Assembly: GCA_002401855.1 (NCBI GenBank) | Contig: NVUH01000005.1 | Span: 69,969 to 133,968, forward strand | From: Hyphomicrobiales bacterium | Lineage (GTDB): Bacteria > Pseudomonadota > Alphaproteobacteria > Rhizobiales > OSC116 | Length of the DNA stretch: 64,000 nt | Direction: 5' to 3' | In this document: positions 5,898-58,270 of the stretch, piece after piece | Layout: each line of letters starts with the position of its first letter | Numbering within the stretch: position 1 is the first letter of the stretch | Made by a program: the position numbers and the translations under genes | The notes under the pieces: generated by a model | The model's input: only the letters and a program-made list of their open reading frames with translations | Databases searched by the model: none | Told to the model about the DNA's origin: nothing

Positions 5898-6500
5898 CCA
5901 AGCAGCCGCACCACCAACCTGCCTCACCCGAACCACCCGCCGCTTGTTCACACAACAAACTCAGAATTTCGTATGTCCTCGTTTCCACGCAAAGATCATT
6001 TCAGTGAGCGCGACAGCGGCCGTTCGAAGCCGCTGCCGTCTAACGCGCGGTCGGCTAGAGAGCGAAGCGAACGCACGCAAGTGTCAACAGCATGCCGAAA
6101 GGCGTGCGTATAAATGAAGTACCCGAGTACAGGCAGGACAGCTAACTTTCTTAGTGTCTTTGCGGCGGCAAATGCAGGTTCATTGTTTGAGATTCCTGCG
6201 CAAACTTTCTAGCTCACAACTTTTCAGCCATCATTGGGCAGTCTCATGCCTAAGCTCTGGAAGTCTGCATTTTCACGTTCGGCTTAAGCCTCTCTGTTAG
6301 CACTTGCGTGCGCTCCACATGCTTCGCATGCTGCGCTAGCCGACCGCGCGTTCGTCGGCAGCGGCTTCGAATGGCCGCTGTCGCGTTCACTGACATGTAT
6401 GGGAGTTGTGGAAACGAGGGCATACGAAATTCTGAGTTTGTTGTGTGAACAAGCGGCGGGTGGTTCGGGTGGGGCAGGTTAGTGGTGCGGCGGCTTTGGG
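5898..6500. repeat. Repeat-family locus A: ~600-bp long hairpin element filling the ubiB/recR convergent gap
   Basis: Perfect 51-nt inverted repeat 5925-5975 vs 6421-6471. The arms continue inward for roughly 190 nt each with few mismatches. Contains core-like GAGAGCGAAGCGAACGCACGCAAGTG (6057-6082) and junction CTCTGGAAGTCTGCA (6255-6269). Confidence 0.95.
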
Positions 6501-9483: not shown

Positions 9484-9591
9484 TTAATTTCCAGATATTT
9501 TGGCTGCATTCCATATAGTAAACGGGACGCAGAAAATACGCAAAAGGATAATGCCTATATAAGGAACAAATATAGGAAAAAAAGGAAAAAA

Positions 9592-9685
9592 GGAAACTGG
9601 ACAATAACCCATGAAAGATTCGTTGTGGCTGCTTCCTTCCGGATCTGACCAGATTGGCGAAAGACACGTCCATCGCCAGCTTCCC
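9592..9685 (-). ncRNA. ffs: Signal recognition particle RNA (4.5S, small bacterial type)
   Basis: Minus strand reads CUGGUCAGAUCCGGAAGGAAGCAGCCACAACG, the conserved SRP domain IV motif. 5' GGAAGCUGG pairs with 3' CCAGUUUCC (one G-U). UUCG/CGAA and CGUG/CAUG inner pairings. A U-rich tract follows. Classic position just upstream of dnaX. Ends are approximate. Confidence 0.85.
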
Positions 9686-11499: not shown

Positions 11500-11635
11500 A
11501 TGGCACCTAGTTTACGGCATAGCGGCAAACTCGCGAAAGCTTTAGATGATGAAGCCAATTGGGGTGCCGAATTAGCACAATTAAGGCGGCTGAGTGGCTT
11601 AGCAAGCGATGCGGAGCATCGCGCACGCAGTGGCC
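11500..11635 (-). repeat. Repeat-family locus J (half element, inverted orientation)
   Basis: Contains GGGGTGCCGAATT and GCGGCTGAGTGGCTTAGC plus a degenerate core GATGCGGAGCATCGCGCACGCAGTG. These match the reverse complement of the left half of loci C, E and F. Confidence 0.8.
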
Positions 11636-11643
11636 AATATAAA

Positions 11644-12630
11644 GTGGCCCAATATAGAAAGAACAACACGATCAGCATTCTCATCGCATCATTAAAACAG
11701 TCCAACATCAGCTGGTATAACGGCTTCAAAGCCATAGCCCCCAAAGTCGGCATAGACCCCAATGAAATCGAATATTGGCCACATGTTGCCGACCCAAGCA
11801 AAGTCGAATATTTAGCCGTGTGGAAACCGCCATATGACATATGCGCCCAACTGCCCAATGTGAAAGTAATCTTTAACCTCGGCGCCGGCGTCGACCATTT
11901 ACTACTAGATGACAGCCTGCCGCCAAACATCCCGATTGTACGGGTGGTTGATGACAATTTAACCCGCCGTATGGGAGAATATGTTTTACTGCAAGTGCTT
12001 TATCACCTGCGTGAAATGCCAAAATTACGTGTGGCACAAGCCGCACATGAATGGCCAGAGCAATATGACCCCGATGCTGTCGATGTCAGTGTTGGCATTA
12101 TGGGCTTGGGCGAAATTGGCGGCCATTGCGCAGCACTTGTGCAGCAAATGGGGTTTAAAACCTTGGGTTGGAGCAATAGCGTTAAAAATATTACGGGCGT
12201 TAAATCTTATGCTGGTCTTGACCAATTGGATGAGTTTTTGGCTGAAACCGAGATTTTGATCAACATATTACCACATACTGATGCCACCAATAAATTGGTA
12301 GATTACCAACTATTGCAAAAACTAAAATCTGATGGCGGCTTGCAAGGCGCTACCTATGTTGCGGCAGGGCGCGGTAAAACTCATGTCGAAACTGATATTG
12401 TGCAGGCGCTTAAAGATGGTTGCCTGAAATCCGCCTCGATGGATGTGTTTGAGCAAGAGCCCCTTGCCGCCGATAGCCCCTTATGGGATTTGCCTAACGT
12501 GGTCATCACCCCGCATAATGCTGCCACTTCTGACCGACAAACAGTCAGCGAGCAAATATTGACGCAAATTGCCAACCATAGAAATGGTTTGCCCTTACAA
12601 AATATAGTGGATTTAACCAAAGGCTATTGA
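11644..12630 (+). CDS. D-isomer-specific 2-hydroxyacid dehydrogenase (glyoxylate/hydroxypyruvate reductase A-like)
   Basis: ORF 11500..12630. NAD fold GIMGLGEIGG, catalytic-domain motifs, ITPHNAA. The first 48 codons of the track ORF are repeat sequence, so GTG 11644 is the proposed start (uncertain). Confidence 0.75.
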   Translation: MAQYRKNNTISILIASLKQSNISWYNGFKAIAPKVGIDPNEIEYWPHVADPSKVEYLAVWKPPYDICAQLPNVKVIFNLGAGVDHLLLDDSLPPNIPIVRVVDDNLTRRMGEYVLLQVLYHLREMPKLRVAQAAHEWPEQYDPDAVDVSVGIMGLGEIGGHCAALVQQMGFKTLGWSNSVKNITGVKSYAGLDQLDEFLAETEILINILPHTDATNKLVDYQLLQKLKSDGGLQGATYVAAGRGKTHVETDIVQALKDGCLKSASMDVFEQEPLAADSPLWDLPNVVITPHNAATSDRQTVSEQILTQIANHRNGLPLQNIVDLTKGY

Positions 12631-17444: not shown

Positions 17445-17580
17445 AAGCACCACAATTCGGCACTTCTGGAGATCTCCTCTGAACCCGAAGGGTGAAGCAA
17501 GGCCAAGCGGCCGTCGCCGTTAGGCGCAGCAAGCAAACGGAGTTTGCGCACGCAGTGCTAAGCATAAGTGCAGAATTTCG
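17445..17580 (+). repeat. Repeat-family locus B (shortened right-half element) inside the def-fmt spacer
   Basis: AATTCGGCAC, ACCC-GAA-GGGT, GGCC-AAGC-GGCC, GTCGCCGTTAGGCG and a degenerate core ...GCGCACGCAGTGCTA match the right half of loci C, E and F. Also contains the palindrome GGAGATCTCC (17467-17476). Confidence 0.85.
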
Positions 17581-18544: not shown

Positions 18545-19130
18545 ACCCACTAACTGTTTTTTTGCGGCCTATACGGGGAAGCATCCTGCCAGCGCTCTGG
18601 AAGTTTGCATTTTTGTTTGGCACTGCGTGCGTTCGCTCCGCTCTCTAGCTAAGCCACTCAGCCGCTGGTCGGAGGCAAATTCGGCACCCCAATCAACTAC
18701 ATTACGCTTAGTGAGCTAGAGTTTGGAGAAGCTCCGAGTATAGGTGCTATATAATTTACTCATTGTGCTTTTCATGGAAAAAGAGTCCGAAGCCTTTGGC
18801 TGAGGCAAGCGCGACCGCGCGTCGCCGTTAGGCGTGGCAAGAGAGCGGAGCGAACGCACGCTAGTGCTAACAGAGAGGCGAAGCCGAATGAAAAAATGAG
18901 ACTTCCAGAGCTTAGGCAGGAGCGCTACCCGGTATAGGCTGTAAAAAGACAGTTGGCTGGTAGTTGAGGCTCTGGAAGTCTGCTCTTATTTCGTTCGCGG
19001 CTATTCTTCGCTTTGCTCAGGCCTACACGGGTGCGCCACATAAGTGGCGGCCTCCAGTTCGGCTGGCTCTAAAAACACATGAGTTTTTAGAGCAAGAGGT
19101 GTACTGAAAGGTTGCGGCTGGGGTGCCGAG
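18545..19130 (+). repeat. Repeat-family locus C (full mosaic element plus extra modules) between fmt and ftsK
   Basis: Junction CTCTGGAAGTTTGCA 18595-18609. Core GCACTGCGTGCGTTCGCTCCGCTCTC 18620-18645. Inverted core 18841-18867. Inverted junction 18897-18910. Second junction 18970-18983. Extra hairpin CTCTAAAAAC/GTTTTTAGAG 19067-19092. Confidence 0.95.
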
Positions 19131-23951: not shown

Positions 23952-24320
23952 GTTCGGCTTCGCCTCTCTTTTTATCGTTCGCGTTGCTCTCTATAAGCAC
24001 TAGCGTGCGTTCGCTCCGCTCTCTTGCCACGCCTAACGGCGACGCGCAGTCGCGCTTGCCTCAGCCCAAGGGCTTCGGACCCTTTTCCCATGATATGCAG
24101 TATAGTACCAAGCAGCAAACTCCGAATTTGTTGGGGCGCACCGAAATACGGAGTTTCACCAAACTCTAGCTAACTTAGCTTAATGAAGTCACGTTGGGTG
24201 GTGAATTCGCATCCGATCAGCGGCCGAGTGGCTTAGCTAGGGAGCGGAGCGAACGCACGCAGTGCCAAACATAATGCAAACTTCCAGAGCGTTGGCAGTA
24301 GCGCTATACTGCTTGCTCGG
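23952..24320 (-). repeat. Repeat-family locus D (full element, central module inverted relative to C, E and F)
   Basis: Core 23997-24023. Inverted core 24240-24265. Inverted junction TGCAAACTTCCAGAG 24275-24289. The central ~215 nt is the reverse complement of the C/E/F centre. Confidence 0.95.
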
Positions 24321-24822: not shown

Positions 24823-24959
24823 CTGTAAAATTTACCTAAAATTTAATTAAAAAATAGTCTTAATAAATTGTAAAAAAAACGTTAAATTAACACTTTGATA
24901 ACTATATCAGCGTAAATATTAACCCAGTATAGGTGAACAAATCAAGACTGAGGTTTAGT

Positions 24960-26714
24960 ATGACAATCAATATTCAAATGCCCGAGTTAAGAGAATTGAA
25001 GCCACGCATCACTGTATTTGGTGTTGGCGGGGCTGGCGGTAACGCCGTTAATAACATGGCAGCACAGGGCCTTGAGGGTGTTGAATTTGTTGTTGCAAAT
25101 ACCGATGCGCAGGCATTGGCACAATCTAAAGTCGAGCGGCAAATACAGCTTGGCACAATGATTACAGAAGGTTTGGGCGCTGGCTCACGGCCTGAAATTG
25201 GCGCTGCGGCGGCCGAAGACAGCTTGCCAGACATTGCTGATTGCATGCATGGCTCGCATATGTGCTTTATCACGGCTGGTATGGGCGGCGGTACAGGCAC
25301 TGGTGCTGCACCGGTTATTGCGCGGGCTGCGCGTGAGCTTGATATTTTGACTGTTGGTGTGGTGACGAAGCCATTCCAATTTGAAGGTGCGCGCCGTATG
25401 GATATTGCTGAGCGCGGCATTACTGAGCTTGAGCAACATGTGGATACGCTGATTGTTATTCCGAATCAAAATCTATTCCGCATTGCTAATGAGAATACAA
25501 CATTCTCTGATGCCTTTGCGATGGCTGACCAAGTTCTTATGAGCGGCGTTTCTGGCATTACTGATTTGATGGTCAAAGAAGGCCTGATTAATTTGGACTT
25601 TGCTGACGTAAGATCAATTATGAAAGACATGGGCAAAGCCATGATGGGCACAGGCGAAGCAACTGGCGAAAAACGTGCTGTTGAAGCTGCTGAAGCGGCG
25701 ATTTCTAACCCATTGCTTGATGACGTATCTATGAAGGGCGCTAAAGGCCTGTTGATTAGCATCACTGGTGGTAGCGATTTAACGCTTTATGAAGTTGATG
25801 AAGCGGCATCGCGCATTCGCTCGGAAGTTGACCCTGAAGCTAACATTATTTTGGGTGCAACATTTGATGATAGTTTAGATGGCGCTATGCGCGTATCTGT
25901 TGTTGCAACTGGTATTGATAAAGAAGATATATTGGTGCTAGATAATGGTGCGCAATCGAGCGTTAGTGCTTATGGTCGTAGTGCGGTTGATAAAATATCT
26001 GCACCTCGCGCGCAGCAAGCTGCGCCTATTGCTCCTGCGCCACGTGTGGCTGTGGAAGCACCTAAAGCGACTATGCAACCACAGAATGAGAATGTTGAAG
26101 TTAGACGCATGAGTGCAACAGATGCTGCTGAAAAAGCAGGTCGGCGGTTGGAGCAACCCGGTTTGAATGCTGAACAGCCGCAAGTGACTAAAACCAATTC
26201 TGGTTTTGAAGCACAGCGCCCTGTGACTGCGCGACCAAACATGACTAGGCAAGCGCCACAACCGCAAGTGCGGCCTTTAACTGAGCAAGCACAAAGCCGA
26301 GTGGCGGCTAATGTTGGCAATAGCACGCCGCGGGCTAATTTGGCGCAGCAAAGCCCTGCACATGCTTTGCGCACTGATGATTTTCCACCAGTTGCCCAGC
26401 GTGAAATTCGTCAATCGCAAGAAATGCAGCAACGTGATGAGCAAGTGAGAGTGCAACCTCAGGCTCAAGCAGCAGAGACAGGTGTAAAGCGTAACGGTTT
26501 TTTTGACCGTTTGGCAAATGTTGGCCTAGGCCGCAAAGATACTGACTTGGTGGATGGAGTTCAACAACCTGCACAAGGGCAAACTGTTCGTCAAGAAACG
26601 CCGCAAATGCGAGCTGCTGAACCACAACCAGCTGTTGCTCCAGTTGATGAGAGCTCAATTGAAGCGGCTGAAAACTTGGAAATTCCAGCTTTCTTGAGAC
26701 GGCAAAACAATTAA
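24960..26714 (+). CDS. ftsZ: Cell division protein FtsZ (long-linker type)
   Basis: [15 protein letters not shown], tubulin signature [17 protein letters not shown], ~230-aa Q/P/A-rich linker, C-terminal peptide [13 protein letters not shown] 24960 after GAGG is preferred over track start 24933. Confidence 0.95.
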
Positions 26715-26737
26715 AAATCTTTAATTCTTAAAGTAAA

Positions 26738-26767
26738 AGCACCGAGTTTCTCGGTGCTTTTTTTTTG
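26738..26767 (+). terminator. Rho-independent terminator of ftsZ
   Basis: AGCACCGAG-TTTC-CTCGGTGCT followed by a 9-nt T-run. Confidence 0.85.
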
Positions 26768-26770
26768 GTT

Positions 26771-27345
26771 AATGTTTGGCACTGCCTCTTTATGTTTGGC
26801 ACTGCGTGCGTTCGCTCCGCTCTCTAGCTAAGCCACTCGGCCGCTGATCGGATGTGAATTCGGCACCTAAGTTGACCTCATTAAGCTAAGTTGGCTGGAA
26901 TATGCCGACATTCTGAGTTTCGGTGGTATCCTTGTTGATGCTCTGGAAGTTTGCATTATATTTGGCACTGCGTGCGTTCGCTCCGCTCTCTAGCTAAGCC
27001 ACTCAGCCGCTGATTGGATGTGAATTCGGCACCCCAATCAACTAAATTACGCTTAGTGAGCTAGAGTTTGGAGAAGCACCGAGTATGGGTGCTAAACTGC
27101 TACTCATTGTGCTTTTCTTGGAAAATATGCCCGACCCCGTAGGGTGAGGCAAGGCCGACTGGCCGTCGCCGTTAGGCGTGGCAAGAGAGTGGAGCGAACG
27201 CACGCAGTGCTACTAGCTCACCGATAGGTGGGCGAAAAAGAGAGGCGAAGCCGAACGAAAAAATGTAGACTTCCAGAGCTTAGGCAGGAGTGCGACCCTA
27301 GTATAGGCTGTAAAAAGACAGTTAGCTGGTAGTTAGGGCTCTGGA
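26771..27345 (+). repeat. Repeat-family locus E (truncated copy followed by a full copy, in tandem)
   Basis: Cores at 26799-26824 and 26965-26990. Inverted core 27185-27210. Junctions 26941-26955 and 27329-27343. Inverted junction 27264-27278. ATGTTTGGCACTGC is duplicated at 26772 and 26792. Confidence 0.95.
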
Positions 27346-27390
27346 AGTTTGTACTTTTCCTGATATGGTGCGGGTGGGAGACTTATATAG

Positions 27391-28122
27391 ATGCAGAATA
27401 TTTTGTATATAACGGGAGCGGGGGTTAGTGCTGAGAGTGGCATACCTACGTTTCGTGGGGTGGATGGTTATTGGACGATTGGGTCTAAAAATTATACACC
27501 GCAGCAAATGGCGACGCGGGCTATGTATCGGCAAAATCCTGCGCAATTTTTACTGTGGTATTATAAACGTTTTGCGACTTATCGTGACCATGGGGCTAAT
27601 GAGGTGCATTATTGGTTGGCCGATAAAAATTTGATTACGCAAAATATTGATGGGCTTGATGGCAAGGCGGGGAATGAGGATTATATATCCATCCATGGGC
27701 GCTTGGACAAGATGACGATATTTCATGAGCAGGGTGAGGATGTGGATGTGGTGACCGCGCCTTATGATGATTTGGACACAGATTTGAATGATGCGGAGTT
27801 TTCTAAGGCTTTGCTTGATATGTTTAGAATTGTAGATGAGACGCCGAAGTTAAATGTGAGCTTTAAGCCGTATGTTTTGTTATTTGATGAGGTTTATACG
27901 GAGCTTTACCGTATAAATGAAGCGCATGAGCGGATGTATGGCGCTGACAAAATTATATTTATGGGCACGAGTTTTAGCGTTAACATCACTCAGATGGCGC
28001 TGGATATTGCGGTGCAAAATAACATTCCGATTGAGATTGTTGACCCCAACCCGATCAATATGGGGCATATAAATGTTAAATATCATAAAATGACTGCGCT
28101 TGACTATATTCAAACTGTTTGA
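27391..28122 (+). CDS. Sir2-family NAD-dependent deacylase homologue lacking the zinc-binding cysteines
   Basis: GAGVSAESGIPTFRG, TQNIDGL, catalytic-type His in SIHGRL, FMGTSFSV. There is no Cys anywhere in the 243 aa. Confidence 0.8.
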   Translation: MQNILYITGAGVSAESGIPTFRGVDGYWTIGSKNYTPQQMATRAMYRQNPAQFLLWYYKRFATYRDHGANEVHYWLADKNLITQNIDGLDGKAGNEDYISIHGRLDKMTIFHEQGEDVDVVTAPYDDLDTDLNDAEFSKALLDMFRIVDETPKLNVSFKPYVLLFDEVYTELYRINEAHERMYGADKIIFMGTSFSVNITQMALDIAVQNNIPIEIVDPNPINMGHINVKYHKMTALDYIQTV

Positions 28123-28285
28123 AATGGGGTAAAAGACCATGAAAAAGCCGAATTTGAGGTTTATTTTGGGTGGAAACTGAGCAAGCTATAGATAATTCGT
28201 CTTTTGTTCACTTTTTGTTTTGATTGTTTGAGTATATATAGTATTTTGAGATTAAAATATCGACTCAATGTAATGAGGAAATTAA

Positions 28286-29032
28286 ATGAGTTTTTTAAGA
28301 GTTTCTGGCCTGTTTTTAGCCATAGCGATGCTAAGTTCTTGCGGTACAGTGGGTGGTATATTGCCTGCGGATGAGCCTGCCCATGTGATTAATGCAGATG
28401 CGCAAAATCTATTGGCTAACCATAATTATAAAAAAGCGGCCGATCGGTTTTTGGAACTTGAGCGCCAACATCCTTATTCTAAATTTACCCAAAAAGGCAT
28501 GATGTCGGCGATTGAGGCTTATTTCTTAATCCGTGATTATGATGATGTGGCTTATACTGCTGATCGTTATATTATTTTATACCCCAAAGCTCGTGATGTG
28601 AAACAGGCATATTATTTGCGTTCTGAAGCTTATTATATTCGCGTGGCGGATGTGAAGCGTGACCAACGTATTACCAAGCGAGCGCAAAAGGCGCTTAAAT
28701 CTTTGATCAGGCGTTTCCCAAGATCTGATGAAGGCATTGCGGCTAAAAATAAGCTATTGATTACTTATGATGTTTTGGCGGCAAAAGAGCTTGAAGTTGG
28801 GCGTTTTTACTTGAAAAAACATAATTTCCCAGCGGCGATTAATCGCTTTAAAGTGGTGGTTGATGACTATGAAACCACGAAACAAATTGAAGAAGCGTTG
28901 GCGCGTTTGGTTGAGGCTTATTTGGCGCTTGGTTTGCGTGATGAAGCTACGGCTAATGCCGCATTACTGGGGCGTAATTATCCATCTGGCGAATGGTATG
29001 GTTATGCGTTTAATTTGCTCAATAAAAATTAG
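28286..29032 (+). CDS. bamD: Outer membrane protein assembly factor BamD (ComL/YfiO lipoprotein)
   Basis: Lipobox LAIAMLSSCG, TPR-like repeats. Position upstream of recN-ligA is typical for alphaproteobacteria. Confidence 0.85.
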   Translation: MSFLRVSGLFLAIAMLSSCGTVGGILPADEPAHVINADAQNLLANHNYKKAADRFLELERQHPYSKFTQKGMMSAIEAYFLIRDYDDVAYTADRYIILYPKARDVKQAYYLRSEAYYIRVADVKRDQRITKRAQKALKSLIRRFPRSDEGIAAKNKLLITYDVLAAKELEVGRFYLKKHNFPAAINRFKVVVDDYETTKQIEEALARLVEAYLALGLRDEATANAALLGRNYPSGEWYGYAFNLLNKN

Positions 29033-29043
29033 GTGATTGGTCA

Positions 29044-30708
29044 ATGCTTGATAGCCTGTCTATTCAAAACATTGTTTTAATTGATAAATTAAATATAGAA
29101 TTTGCAGATGGCCTGAGTGCTTTAACGGGTGAAACGGGTGCAGGCAAATCTATATTATTGGATAGTTTAGGCTTGGCGTTGGGCGCGCGGGGTGATGCCT
29201 CTTTGGTGCGCCACGGCGTGGAAAAAGGCCAGGTGACTGCGAGTTTTAATTTGCCTGCTAGCCATTCGACTTTTGGGTTGTTGGATGCGAATGACATTAG
29301 CCATGATGGTGAGATGATTTTAAAGCGGGTACAAAATGCTGATGGGCGCAGTAAAGCGTTTATTAATGATCAGGTGGTTTCGACCCGTTTGCTCAAAAAA
29401 GTTGGTGAATTGCTGATTGAAATTCATGGTCAACATGACAATAGAGCCTTGGCTGATACCAGTGCTTATTTATCTTTGCTTGATGCTTTTGCGGGGCTGA
29501 GTGAAGCAGCTAAAACCATTAATAAATTGTGGGACATTTGGCAAAGTGCCCGCACAGAAGTTGCCACGCACGAGGAAAATTTGCGTAAAGCCCAAGCTGA
29601 TGAAGATTATACCCGACATGTGCTGGCGGAGCTTGAGCAGTTAAAACCATCAACCGAAGAAGAGCAGGCTTTGGCCGACGAGAGATCGATTTTGCAAGCG
29701 TCTGAAAAAGTGGCGAGTGATGTGCAAGGTGCCAAAAAATTGCTGCATAAAGACGGTGGGGTGGAAAAGCGAATTTATAGTGCGATGAGTGCATTGGAGC
29801 GCAATGATGCCGATATTGAAGCTTTGGTCAAACCGTCGGTCGAAGCATTGGATAGGGCTTTGATAGAGTTGCAGCTGGCTAGTGAAGAAATTGCGGAGCT
29901 TGAGCGTAATTTGGAGTTTGACCCTGCGCGGTTGGATGATGTTGAAGAAAGATTATTTGCCTTGCGTGGTGCCGCCCGCAAACATGGGGTGTTGGTTGAT
30001 GAATTGCCTGAATTGTTGGAAAAATTTCGCAATATGATTGCCAGCCTTGAGGGTGATCAGGTGCGTGCGGATGAGCTGTATAAGGCGATGAATGCGGCCA
30101 AGGCTGAATATGAACAAGCGGCGAAAATACAAAGCCAAAAGCGCCAATCTGCGGCGAAAGTGTTGGAAAAAGCGGTGACTAGTGAGTTGCCGCCACTTAA
30201 GCTTGAACGGGCGAAATTTTATTGCAAAGTTAAGAATTTAGGCGTTGATGGCGCGATGCGAAATGGATTTGACGCGGTGAGCTTTGAAGTGATGACCAAC
30301 CCTGGTACGGCTTCTGGGCCGTTGATGAAAGTGGCTTCGGGCGGTGAATTGGCGCGAATTATGCTTTCGCTTAAGGTGAGTTTGGCTGATAAGGGCAGTG
30401 CGCCGACTTTGGTATTTGATGAGATTGACACAGGTGTTGGTGGCGCGGTGGCCGAAGCCATCGGCACACGTTTGGCGCGGCTGGGCGATAAGGTGCAGGT
30501 GATTACTGTGACCCATTCGCCGCAAGTGGCGGCGGCGGCTGATCGGCAATTTGTTATCTCTAAATCCGAGCAGCGCAAAAACCGTATGGTGACAGATGTG
30601 CTGCTGTTAGACGATGCCGAGCGGCATGAAGAAATTGCCCGCATGTTGGCTGGTGCTGTGGTGAGTGATGAAGCGCGCGCGGCGGCACAAAAACTACTTA
30701 ACGTTTGA
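29044..30708 (+). CDS. recN: DNA repair protein RecN
   Basis: 554 aa. Walker A GETGAGKSILLD, long coiled-coil, signature SGGELARIML, Walker B LVFDEIDTGVGG. Confidence 0.95.
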   Translation: MLDSLSIQNIVLIDKLNIEFADGLSALTGETGAGKSILLDSLGLALGARGDASLVRHGVEKGQVTASFNLPASHSTFGLLDANDISHDGEMILKRVQNADGRSKAFINDQVVSTRLLKKVGELLIEIHGQHDNRALADTSAYLSLLDAFAGLSEAAKTINKLWDIWQSARTEVATHEENLRKAQADEDYTRHVLAELEQLKPSTEEEQALADERSILQASEKVASDVQGAKKLLHKDGGVEKRIYSAMSALERNDADIEALVKPSVEALDRALIELQLASEEIAELERNLEFDPARLDDVEERLFALRGAARKHGVLVDELPELLEKFRNMIASLEGDQVRADELYKAMNAAKAEYEQAAKIQSQKRQSAAKVLEKAVTSELPPLKLERAKFYCKVKNLGVDGAMRNGFDAVSFEVMTNPGTASGPLMKVASGGELARIMLSLKVSLADKGSAPTLVFDEIDTGVGGAVAEAIGTRLARLGDKVQVITVTHSPQVAAAADRQFVISKSEQRKNRMVTDVLLLDDAERHEEIARMLAGAVVSDEARAAAQKLLNV

Positions 30709-33352
<2,644 letters not shown>

Positions 33353-48564: not shown

Positions 48565-48985
48565 ATTTTCTGAGTTGGTTGTAAATAGACAGTTGGCTGG
48601 TCGTTGAGGCTCTGGAAGTTTGCATTTTTTCGTTCGGCTTCGCCTCGCTTTTTATCGTTCGCGTTGCTCTCTATAAGCACTAGCGTGCGTTCGCTCCGCT
48701 CTCTAGCTAAGCCACTCAGCCGCTGGTCGGATGCGAATTCACCACCCCAATCAACTACATTACGCTTAGTAAGCTAGAGTTTGACGAAGCACCGAGTATA
48801 GGTGCCATATAATTTACTCATTGTGCTTTTCGTGGAAAAAAAGCCCGAACCCGTAGGGTGAGGCAAGCGCGACTGCGCGTCGCCGTTAGGCGTGGCAAGA
48901 GAGCGGAGTGAACGCACGCAGTGTTTATAGAGAGCAACGCGAACGACAAAAGAGAGGCGAAGCCGAACGTAAAAATGCAGAGACA
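48565..48985 (+). repeat. Repeat-family locus F (full element) between lepA and the LacI gene
   Basis: Junction 48610-48624. ~82-nt inverted arms (48621-48703 vs 48899-48980, ~90 percent complementary by eye) carry the core at 48677-48703 and the inverted core at 48899-48923. ~195-nt centre. Confidence 0.95.
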
Positions 48986-57556: not shown

Positions 57557-57715
57557 TTTATGTTTGGCCCCTGCGGGCACAACACATCCGTGTTGCTTGC
57601 TAAGCCACTCAGCCGCTGGTCTTATTGTTTATTCACCACCCCATTTAGGCTCATTATTTTACGTTGAGTAGAGTTTGGCGAAATACCGCATGTTGGTGCT
57701 ATACGGATATTCGGG
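57557..57715 (+). repeat. Repeat-family locus H (left-half variant)
   Basis: ATGTTTGGCC..., variant core with hairpin GCACAACAC-ATCC-GTGTTGC, then GCTAAGCCACTCAGCCGCTGGTC, ATTCACCACCCC, GAGTAGAGTTTGG. Confidence 0.85.
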
Positions 57716-58132: not shown

Positions 58133-58270
58133 TTATGTTTGGCCACTGCGTGCGCAACACATCCGTGTTGCTTGCTACGCCTAACGGCGACGGCCAGTCG
58201 GCCTTGCCTCAGCCTAAAGGCTTCGGATTTTTTCCCTCGAATGGTTTTACTCATCGCATGGTGAATGAGA
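58133..58270 (-). repeat. Repeat-family locus I (variant core + inverted right-half module)
   Basis: ATGTTTGGCCACTGCGTGCG, hairpin GCAACAC-ATCC-GTGTTGC, then TACGCCTAACGGCGAC-GGCC-AGTC-GGCC-TTGCCTCAGCCTAAAGGCTTCGG, the reverse complement of the right half of C, E and F. Confidence 0.85.

Follow-up and report, generated by a model that had tools for sequence, protein, structure and literature searches.

Can a sirtuin lose its zinc ribbon and still act as a lysine deacylase that depends on nicotinamide adenine dinucleotide (NAD+)? The question is raised by a gene in a 64,000-nucleotide stretch of a Hyphomicrobiales genome (contig NVUH01000005.1, assembly GCA_002401855.1), which as a whole is called the window below and is numbered from its first letter. 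The gene is a complete coding sequence (27391..28122, ATG to TGA, stop codon included) and, like all of its parts described here, lies on the forward strand. It encodes a sirtuin of 243 amino acids (aa) with 0 Cys in the translation. An exact-sequence look-up found the identical protein in GenBank as PCI87976.1, 'MAG: sirtuin [Hyphomicrobiales bacterium]' (MAG, metagenome-assembled genome), and this annotation as a sirtuin is already correct. The reading favoured here, to which we give a probability of roughly 0.68, is that of a standalone NAD+-dependent class III-type lysine deacylase that is predicted to need no zinc. A deacylase is favoured because of the placement in class III, the residue pair Y57/R60 and the invariance of the catalytic residues.

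Judged by its sequence, the protein is a genuine Sir2 family member with correctly aligned catalytic residues. Its only Pfam match is SIR2 PF02146 (79.2 bits against a gathering score of 24, E=4.7e-22, residues 9-197), of which profile positions 1-178 of 180 are covered. The NAD-binding GAGVS and the cofactor-binding loop AESGIPTFRG together make up GAGVSAESGIPTFRG (residues 9-23, 27415..27459), which is near-invariant or invariant in two homologue alignments, with F21 and R22 of the loop invariant, and which aligns residue for residue with positions 20-34 of Sir2Af1 (G9-S13 with G20-S24, F21/R22 with F32/R33). The nicotinamide-ribose pocket Q84-N85-I86-D87 (27640..27651, within TQNIDGL, 83-89) is likewise invariant and corresponds to Q98-N99-V100-D101 of Sir2Af1. 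The catalytic His motif H102-G103 (27694..27699, within SIHGRL, 100-105) is found in 100% of both zinc-free families, i.e. the proteobacterial family of the query and its Bacteroidota sister, and H102 aligns with Sir2Af1 H116. The NAD ribose/phosphate-binding motif G192-T193-S194 (27964..27972, within FMGTSFSV, 190-197) is invariant. Overall, the residues of the NAD pocket and catalytic site (GAGxS, F/R, QNxD, HG and GTS) do not vary over 238 homologues, and the catalytic and NAD residues are thus constant across two families that are mutually only ~40% identical. An earlier note on this DNA, made from the letters alone, had described a Sir2 member in which the NAD pocket and the catalytic His are intact and the zinc ribbon is absent. 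Alignment and PF02146 agree on that description; GAGVSAESGIPTFRG, TQNIDGL, SIHGRL and FMGTSFSV were all found as quoted, the count of Cys over the whole protein is indeed zero, and the interval between the His and KPYVLLFDE, said to be acidic and Cys-free, holds 14 Asp/Glu against 4 Lys/Arg over residues 105-158. A misalignment of the catalytic His or Asn, which the note had feared, is ruled out by the pairing of H102 and N85 with H116 and N99 of Sir2Af1.

What, then, stands in place of the zinc ribbon? In reviews the Cys4 zinc module figures as a hallmark of canonical sirtuins (PMC8556138, PMC12700824) and as constant in CobB-type and eukaryotic ones (PMC8556138). A protein of 243 aa that lacks Cys altogether would arise by chance with a probability of ~0.11 at an assumed Cys frequency of 0.9%, and the zero count is therefore not improbable by itself. 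What does exceed chance, as far as the alignments tell, is that none of the four zinc ligands that relatives keep is left, and that their absence is conserved. No Cys occupies the Cys4 ligand columns in any of the 238 homologues (120 + 118), so that the two Cys pairs by which class III zinc binding is recognised are not there. Of the 120 closest homologues, 97 are entirely free of Cys; the remaining ones contain one or two, scattered over positions that are not homologous.

The segment in question (residues 104-158, 27700..27864) was modelled with AlphaFold 2 (AF2) from a 122-sequence alignment spanning both zinc-free families. The whole model has a mean pLDDT (score of the predicted local distance difference test) of 91.8 and a predicted template modelling score of 0.87, and over residues 100-160 the pLDDT is 95-98. 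The module is modelled as a strand (103-110), a second strand (120-122), a loop and a helix (134-144) with short bridges, and it is closed by the Rossmann strand 158-162. In this model the canonical ribbon seems to have kept its first hairpin, and the second Cys knuckle and third strand would be replaced by the helix, from which we infer that Leu, Phe and Ile face W/Y125. The positions concerned are strongly conserved in the proteobacterial and Bacteroidota families, respectively: W at 125 (94% and 100%; Y in the query), L, also F, at 137 (93% and 80%), L at 141 (99% and 98%), F at 145 (100% in each) and I at 147 (100% and 97%). Ser157, also in the module, is conserved at 99% and 100%. The acidic surface loop at ~127-133 is a length-variable insertion and is unlikely to be a functional site, as it is absent in 79% of family members. 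One homologue (P0122) has a long Gly/Ala-rich insertion at the position of this loop, giving a module of 91 residues, and so the loop tolerates large insertions.

Two further segments depart from the canonical pattern. KPYVLLFDE (residues 159-167, 27865..27891) is the counterpart of the (R/K)PxVVxFGE substrate-binding loop and aligns with RPGVVWFGE of Sir2Af1; the Gly of FGE has become Asp166, and F165, D166 and E167 are all 100% conserved. The cofactor-binding loop carries a 4-residue insertion (residues 29-32, 27475..27486) that falls in a gap of the Sir2Af1 alignment. It is present in the proteobacterial family and absent from the Bacteroidota sister family, and the prediction puts it in a small beta-hairpin of strands 28-30 and 33-35. 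The lowest pLDDT of the N-terminal half, 68-81, is in blocks covering residues 11-30.

Both sequence and the ranking of predicted-fold matches place the protein as class III-like, next to SIRT5, CobB and Sir2Af1. A phmmer search of the PDB returned Sir2Af1 (1.4e-16), Sir2Af2, SIRT5, PfSir2A and CobB at the top, with SIRT4, TmSir2, SIRT1, SIRT6 and SIRT3 (classes I, II and IV included) far weaker. The confident part of these alignments is limited to residues ~4-106, and similarity ends where the zinc ribbon should start. The AF2 model has the sirtuin fold, with a predicted Rossmann domain and small domain. Comparison of the model with the PDB by Foldseek gave 266 matches at E<=1e-3. The best 50 are all sirtuins (template modelling score 0.66-0.77, query-normalised, at 20-27% identity), led by SIRT5, Sir2Af1 and CobB (~0.70-0.77), with TmSir2 and SIRT4 also present. 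The AlphaFold and Foldseek placement proposed in the earlier note thus ends in class III. No zinc-free canonical sirtuin or closer solved structure is among these best 50 matches. The protein also shares with Sir2Af1 (PDB 1ICI/4TWI), SIRT5 and the CobB proteins of E. coli and Salmonella the motifs GAGxSxESGIPTFRG, QNxD, HG and GTS, the Y-x-x-R pair and the architecture of a single domain of ~240 aa encoded by a standalone gene. It differs from them in lacking the four ribbon Cys, in the predicted helix in the second half of the ribbon, in having FDE for FGE and in the 4-residue insertion of the cofactor loop. The Y-x-x-R pair, Y57-x-x-R60 (27559..27570), is the acyl-carboxylate recognition pair of class III and aligns with Y64/R67 of Sir2Af1, which hydrogen-bond the succinyl carboxylate in 4TWI in the manner of SIRT5 Y102/R105 and CobB R95 (PMC4253809). 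In each of the two zinc-free families R60 does not vary and Y57 reaches a conservation of at least 90%.

Is the absence of the ribbon peculiar to this genome? A protein search found 5230 homologues, of which the best 120 were examined closely. These 120 are 66-88% identical to the query. Their sources are MAGs of Hyphomicrobiales and of other Alphaproteobacteria, together with Pseudoalteromonas, Kangiellaceae, Thalassotalea and Saccharobesus, and those that bear a name are annotated as "sirtuin" or "SIR2 family NAD-dependent protein deacylase". Identity of 66-88% across alpha- and gammaproteobacteria points to strong purifying selection. Confirmed relatives are carried by at least 576 species-representative genomes, among 599 pattern matches listed, and most of the species are marine. 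The scanned genomes with relatives also include SAR116, Rhodobacteraceae, OCS116, Pelagibacterales and Kordiimonadaceae MAGs, and the family is carried by Halieaceae and Oceanospirillaceae as well as Kangiella, Pseudoalteromonas and Thalassotalea. The gene is near-universal in genera such as Pseudoalteromonas (66-72% identity to the query). The Bacteroidota sister family (Sediminibacterium, Chitinophagaceae) consists of proteins of ~240 aa that are ~40% identical and have the same Cys-less module. Whether such a protein belonged to a well-characterised zinc-free subclass had been a concern of the earlier note; the query instead falls in a large, uncharacterised one. The query is 63-70% identical to gammaproteobacterial members and 53-63% to most other alphaproteobacterial ones (SAR116, Rhodobacteraceae), a pattern that hints at horizontal transfer between the proteobacterial classes; local GC gives no signal of it. 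One family copy lies on a 456-kb Catenovulum plasmid (L053). A 287-aa protein (P0131) matches the sirtuin only N-terminally (residues 2-169), and by eye its remainder is hydrophobic and unlike the family; suspected to be a chimeric or frame-shifted gene call, it was left out of the analysis.

The origin of the Cys-less state was approached by an exhaustive search of 50%-identity cluster representatives, which gave 4420 matches, only 33 of them below 1e-30. Every full-length representative above ~38% identity lacks Cys pairs. Most representatives at ~27-36% identity have 3-7 module Cys, typically as two ligand pairs or CxxC. F21, R22, Q84, N85, D87, H102 and the FDE loop are kept in all representative matches, and Y57 and R60 in nearly all. 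The nearest relatives outside the zinc-free families form an FDE clade of uncharacterised, class III-like bacterial sirtuins (P0147, P0151 and P0189 among them; ~30-36% identity), which shares with the query F21, R22, Y-x-x-R and RPH(V/I)LWFDExY. Its members closest to the query, P0147 and P0151, also share the insertion GYW(T/Q)VGSxNYxPE(E/Q)M. However, most of this clade retains 3-7 module Cys, whereas the query family and its Bacteroidota sister have none. As the Cys pairs persist in most of the more distant relatives (~30-36% identity), loss of the zinc ribbon is probably a secondary event. Other Cys-less lineages with unrelated module sequences occur within the FDE clade (P0161, P0172, P0174, P0182, P0192, P0193 and P0243), which suggests, on an identity-ranked alignment and not a tree, that loss of the ribbon was repeated there.

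Under the favoured reading, the Rossmann domain would hold NAD+ by means of GAGVS, F21/R22, Q84-N85-x-D87 and G192-T193-S194. H102 would serve as general base, and the acyl-lysine peptide would be placed between this domain and the FDE loop. Nicotinamide would then leave, an imidate would form and resolve with the assistance of H102, and O-acyl-ADP-ribose would result. Y57/R60 would admit carboxylate-bearing acyls (succinyl, malonyl and glutaryl) beside acetyl, as in CobB and Sir2Af1. In the small domain, the zinc ribbon would have given way to a Cys-free beta-hairpin and helix built on the hydrophobic core of W/Y125, L137, L141, F145 and I147, and the enzyme should fold and work without zinc and without oxidisable thiols. 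Its role in the cell is probably ordinary lysine deacylation. Several points weigh against such an enzyme. The zinc module is reported to be required for canonical sirtuin deacetylation, and its absence to be typical of SIR2_2 and defence sirtuins (PMC12700824), although a metal-free substitute is plausible. Scores for the NCBIfam CobB/deacylase equivalogs (NF040867, NF001752-5) are far under the cut-offs (111.7 against 243, 102.9 against 221 and 99.4 against 320), and by this measure the protein is not a CobB equivalog. Asp166 replaces the Gly of FGE, which may affect peptide binding. AF2 does not model metals, and thus there may be a metal site with ligands other than Cys. Finally, the enzymatic activity of the subfamily is something that we infer, as are its acyl preference, its metal independence and any adaptive reason for it.

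The question of metal bears on how the deacylase is built. An enzyme that still holds a structural metal through D106, H112 and acidic residues is unlikely, even though the proteobacterial family conserves D106 (99%), H112 (98%) and Q114 (100%), the module is rich in acidic residues, and an in-silico study on acetic acid bacteria suggested a His near a modelled Zn in a Cys-less SIR2 (PMC11820453). The same three positions are N, N and E in the Bacteroidota sister family, despite its having the same module core. Moreover, the conserved residues that the two families share are hydrophobic (W, L, L, F and I), which argues for a packed core rather than a metal site, and the acidic loop varies in length and is missing from most of the family, as described above. 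That the protein has no activity at all, being a decaying remnant, a pseudoenzyme or an NAD sensor, is highly improbable. The module that it has lost is the one reported as necessary for canonical activity, and the equivalog scores are below cut-off; however, no catalytic or NAD residue varies among hundreds of species in two phyla, the frame is intact, conservation is strong and the fold is predicted with confidence.

As to the reaction itself, the earlier note had left a choice between a deacylase, an ADP-ribosyltransferase and an NADase, and of these the deacylase is favoured. A primary activity as a protein mono-ADP-ribosyltransferase, of the SirTM kind or as reported for SIRT4 and SIRT6, would be permitted by sirtuin chemistry, and the altered small domain together with the FDE loop could shift acceptor-site binding, but we consider it quite improbable. 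SirTM keeps its zinc and is defined by the change of HG to QG and by linkage to a macrodomain (PMC4518038). Here HG is invariant, and neither a macrodomain nor GcvH-L or LplA2 is encoded nearby in the window or at 85 related loci. The conserved Y57/R60 pair is sensible only for an acyl-lysine substrate, and no SirTM structure is among the best 50 fold matches. Assignment to SirTM as such was rejected on the HG motif and the missing macrodomain. There is very little to be said for an NAD+-depleting effector of anti-phage defence or abortive infection, such as ThsA, DSR, SIR2-HerA or SIR2-pAgo. The zinc module is absent as it is in defence SIR2 domains (PMC12700824), and a repeat element adjoins the gene. 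The SIR2_2 and defence proteins (ThsA, DSR, FAM118) are also NAD-processing Rossmann enzymes without a zinc module. They nevertheless belong to a separate Pfam family and have a seven-stranded sheet, multimerisation and partner domains, none of which the query has; it is a one-domain canonical PF02146 protein of 243 aa that lacks both a sensor domain and a partner gene. No PADLOC defence model matches the sirtuin even at E<=1. The neighbours are housekeeping genes here (ftsZ, bamD, recN and ligA) and unrelated housekeeping genes elsewhere, near-universal presence in Pseudoalteromonas is unlike the patchy occurrence of defence genes, and the repeat is dispersed throughout the window and not specific to this gene. 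The defence or NADase assignment was rejected on the PADLOC result and on the lack of a conserved partner in seven contexts inspected by hand and 85 loci clustered.

Where does the favoured deacylase stand among proteins already described? SIR2-type sirtuins of acetic acid bacteria were reported in silico to keep the NAD site and to miss the zinc cysteines (PMC11820453), and no other mention of Cys-less PF02146 sirtuins turned up in the literature searched. They are from a different taxon, and the study is computational with no function established. Outside the sirtuins, non-zinc ribosomal protein S4 and GluRS without a zinc motif are described (PMC3087516, PMC4381286) as bacterial housekeeping proteins in which a structural Cys4 site was lost repeatedly and function kept; these families are unrelated and offer an analogy, not a homology. 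Characterisation of the subfamily was not found in the literature on zinc-free or Cys-less sirtuins or on Pseudoalteromonas sirtuins, and a paper on sirtuin activity profiling (PMC10652111) makes no mention of zinc or of the taxa that carry it. The widespread zinc-free subfamily is apparently not described in the literature found. It is a speculative and rather doubtful extension that the query is the founding member of a widespread zinc-free, thiol-free lineage of canonical sirtuins, shielded from a shortage of zinc as well as from oxidative or thiol stress and often the main or only sirtuin in surface-ocean bacteria (SAR116, Rhodobacteraceae, Pseudoalteromonas and others). If this were true, catalysis by canonical sirtuins could do without zinc, and there would be a sirtuin scaffold both minimal and redox-inert. 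A zinc-free class III sirtuin would be a direct test of the role of zinc beyond scaffolding, and a small redox-inert one could be of use in structural work and enzyme engineering. It may also exemplify the evolution of metal sparing in bacteria of the ocean. In practical terms the stakes are modest: annotation calls the gene a sirtuin already, and the job that it likely does, reversing lysine acylation, is an ordinary one.

The genomic neighbourhood is as had been noticed from the letters: the gene is isolated, with a repeat upstream, bamD downstream and no defence-type partner nearby. It lies between ftsZ (upstream) and bamD, recN and ligA (downstream), with GNAT and glyoxalase genes also near. 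A terminator-like hairpin with a 12-bp stem and a T-run (26735..26771, hairpin 26735-26761, forward strand) lies just 3' of ftsZ and separates the sirtuin gene from ftsZ transcription; no terminator-like site was found between the sirtuin gene and bamD. The order ftsZ-sir2-bamD-recN-ligA (window 24933-32865) recurs in the two closest alphaproteobacterial contigs (L001 and L003; 88% and 79% protein identity). In the query and in both of these contigs, the opposite strand carries a MepB-like gene immediately upstream of ftsZ. Many alphaproteobacteria have lpxC in the slot between ftsZ and bamD. The neighbours in gammaproteobacteria differ, and include a Kelch-repeat protein gene, miaE with a cold-shock gene, kefB with gltA, and others. 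When neighbours within 2.5 kb were compared all against all over 85 loci, no neighbour family was found at more than 11 loci, and those reaching up to 11 reflect within-genus synteny. In 11 loci a gene for a Kelch-repeat beta-propeller, apparently secreted, lies directly upstream of the sirtuin gene; at one of them, in Pseudoalteromonas shioyasakiensis (CP077771, L002 4982-6720), an overlap of 4 nt between the pair points to co-transcription. At 11 others the gene directly upstream encodes a multi-pass membrane protein instead. Both pairings are confined to these subsets of loci. A motif scan of all six frames found no second sirtuin in the window. The GC content of the gene (0.38-0.47) is inside the local range (0.34-0.55), and a foreign island was rejected on the absence of any compositional signal in GC.

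The repeat upstream of the sirtuin gene (26790-27351) is a dispersed intergenic element of ~340-410 nt whose copies are 76-86% identical. Further copies lie at 18594-18982 (+), 23952-24290 (-) and 48677-48981 (+), with fragments at 6054-6298, 11549-11648, 17481-17560, 57596-57712 and 58171-58235. The window contains the core 20-mer 6 times, where the expected number is 0. Next to the sirtuin gene there is a full copy and a partial tandem duplicate at 166-nt spacing. Inverted repeats are present both internally (36 nt, 26965-27000 / 27175-27210) and on the outside (GCTCTGGAAGTTTG, 26940-26957 / 27262-27279). The element looks like a miniature inverted-repeat transposable element, a repetitive extragenic palindromic element or a structured RNA repeat. 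The idea that this spacer holds a regulatory RNA specific to the gene, or a retron-like element, was rejected, as no Rfam family reaches the gathering score in the spacer or repeat and copies occur elsewhere in the window. The repeat has no relation to the sirtuin. Just one Rfam family reaches gathering score anywhere in the window, namely the bacterial small signal recognition particle RNA (RF00169, 49.5 bits), at 9588-9685 on the reverse strand.

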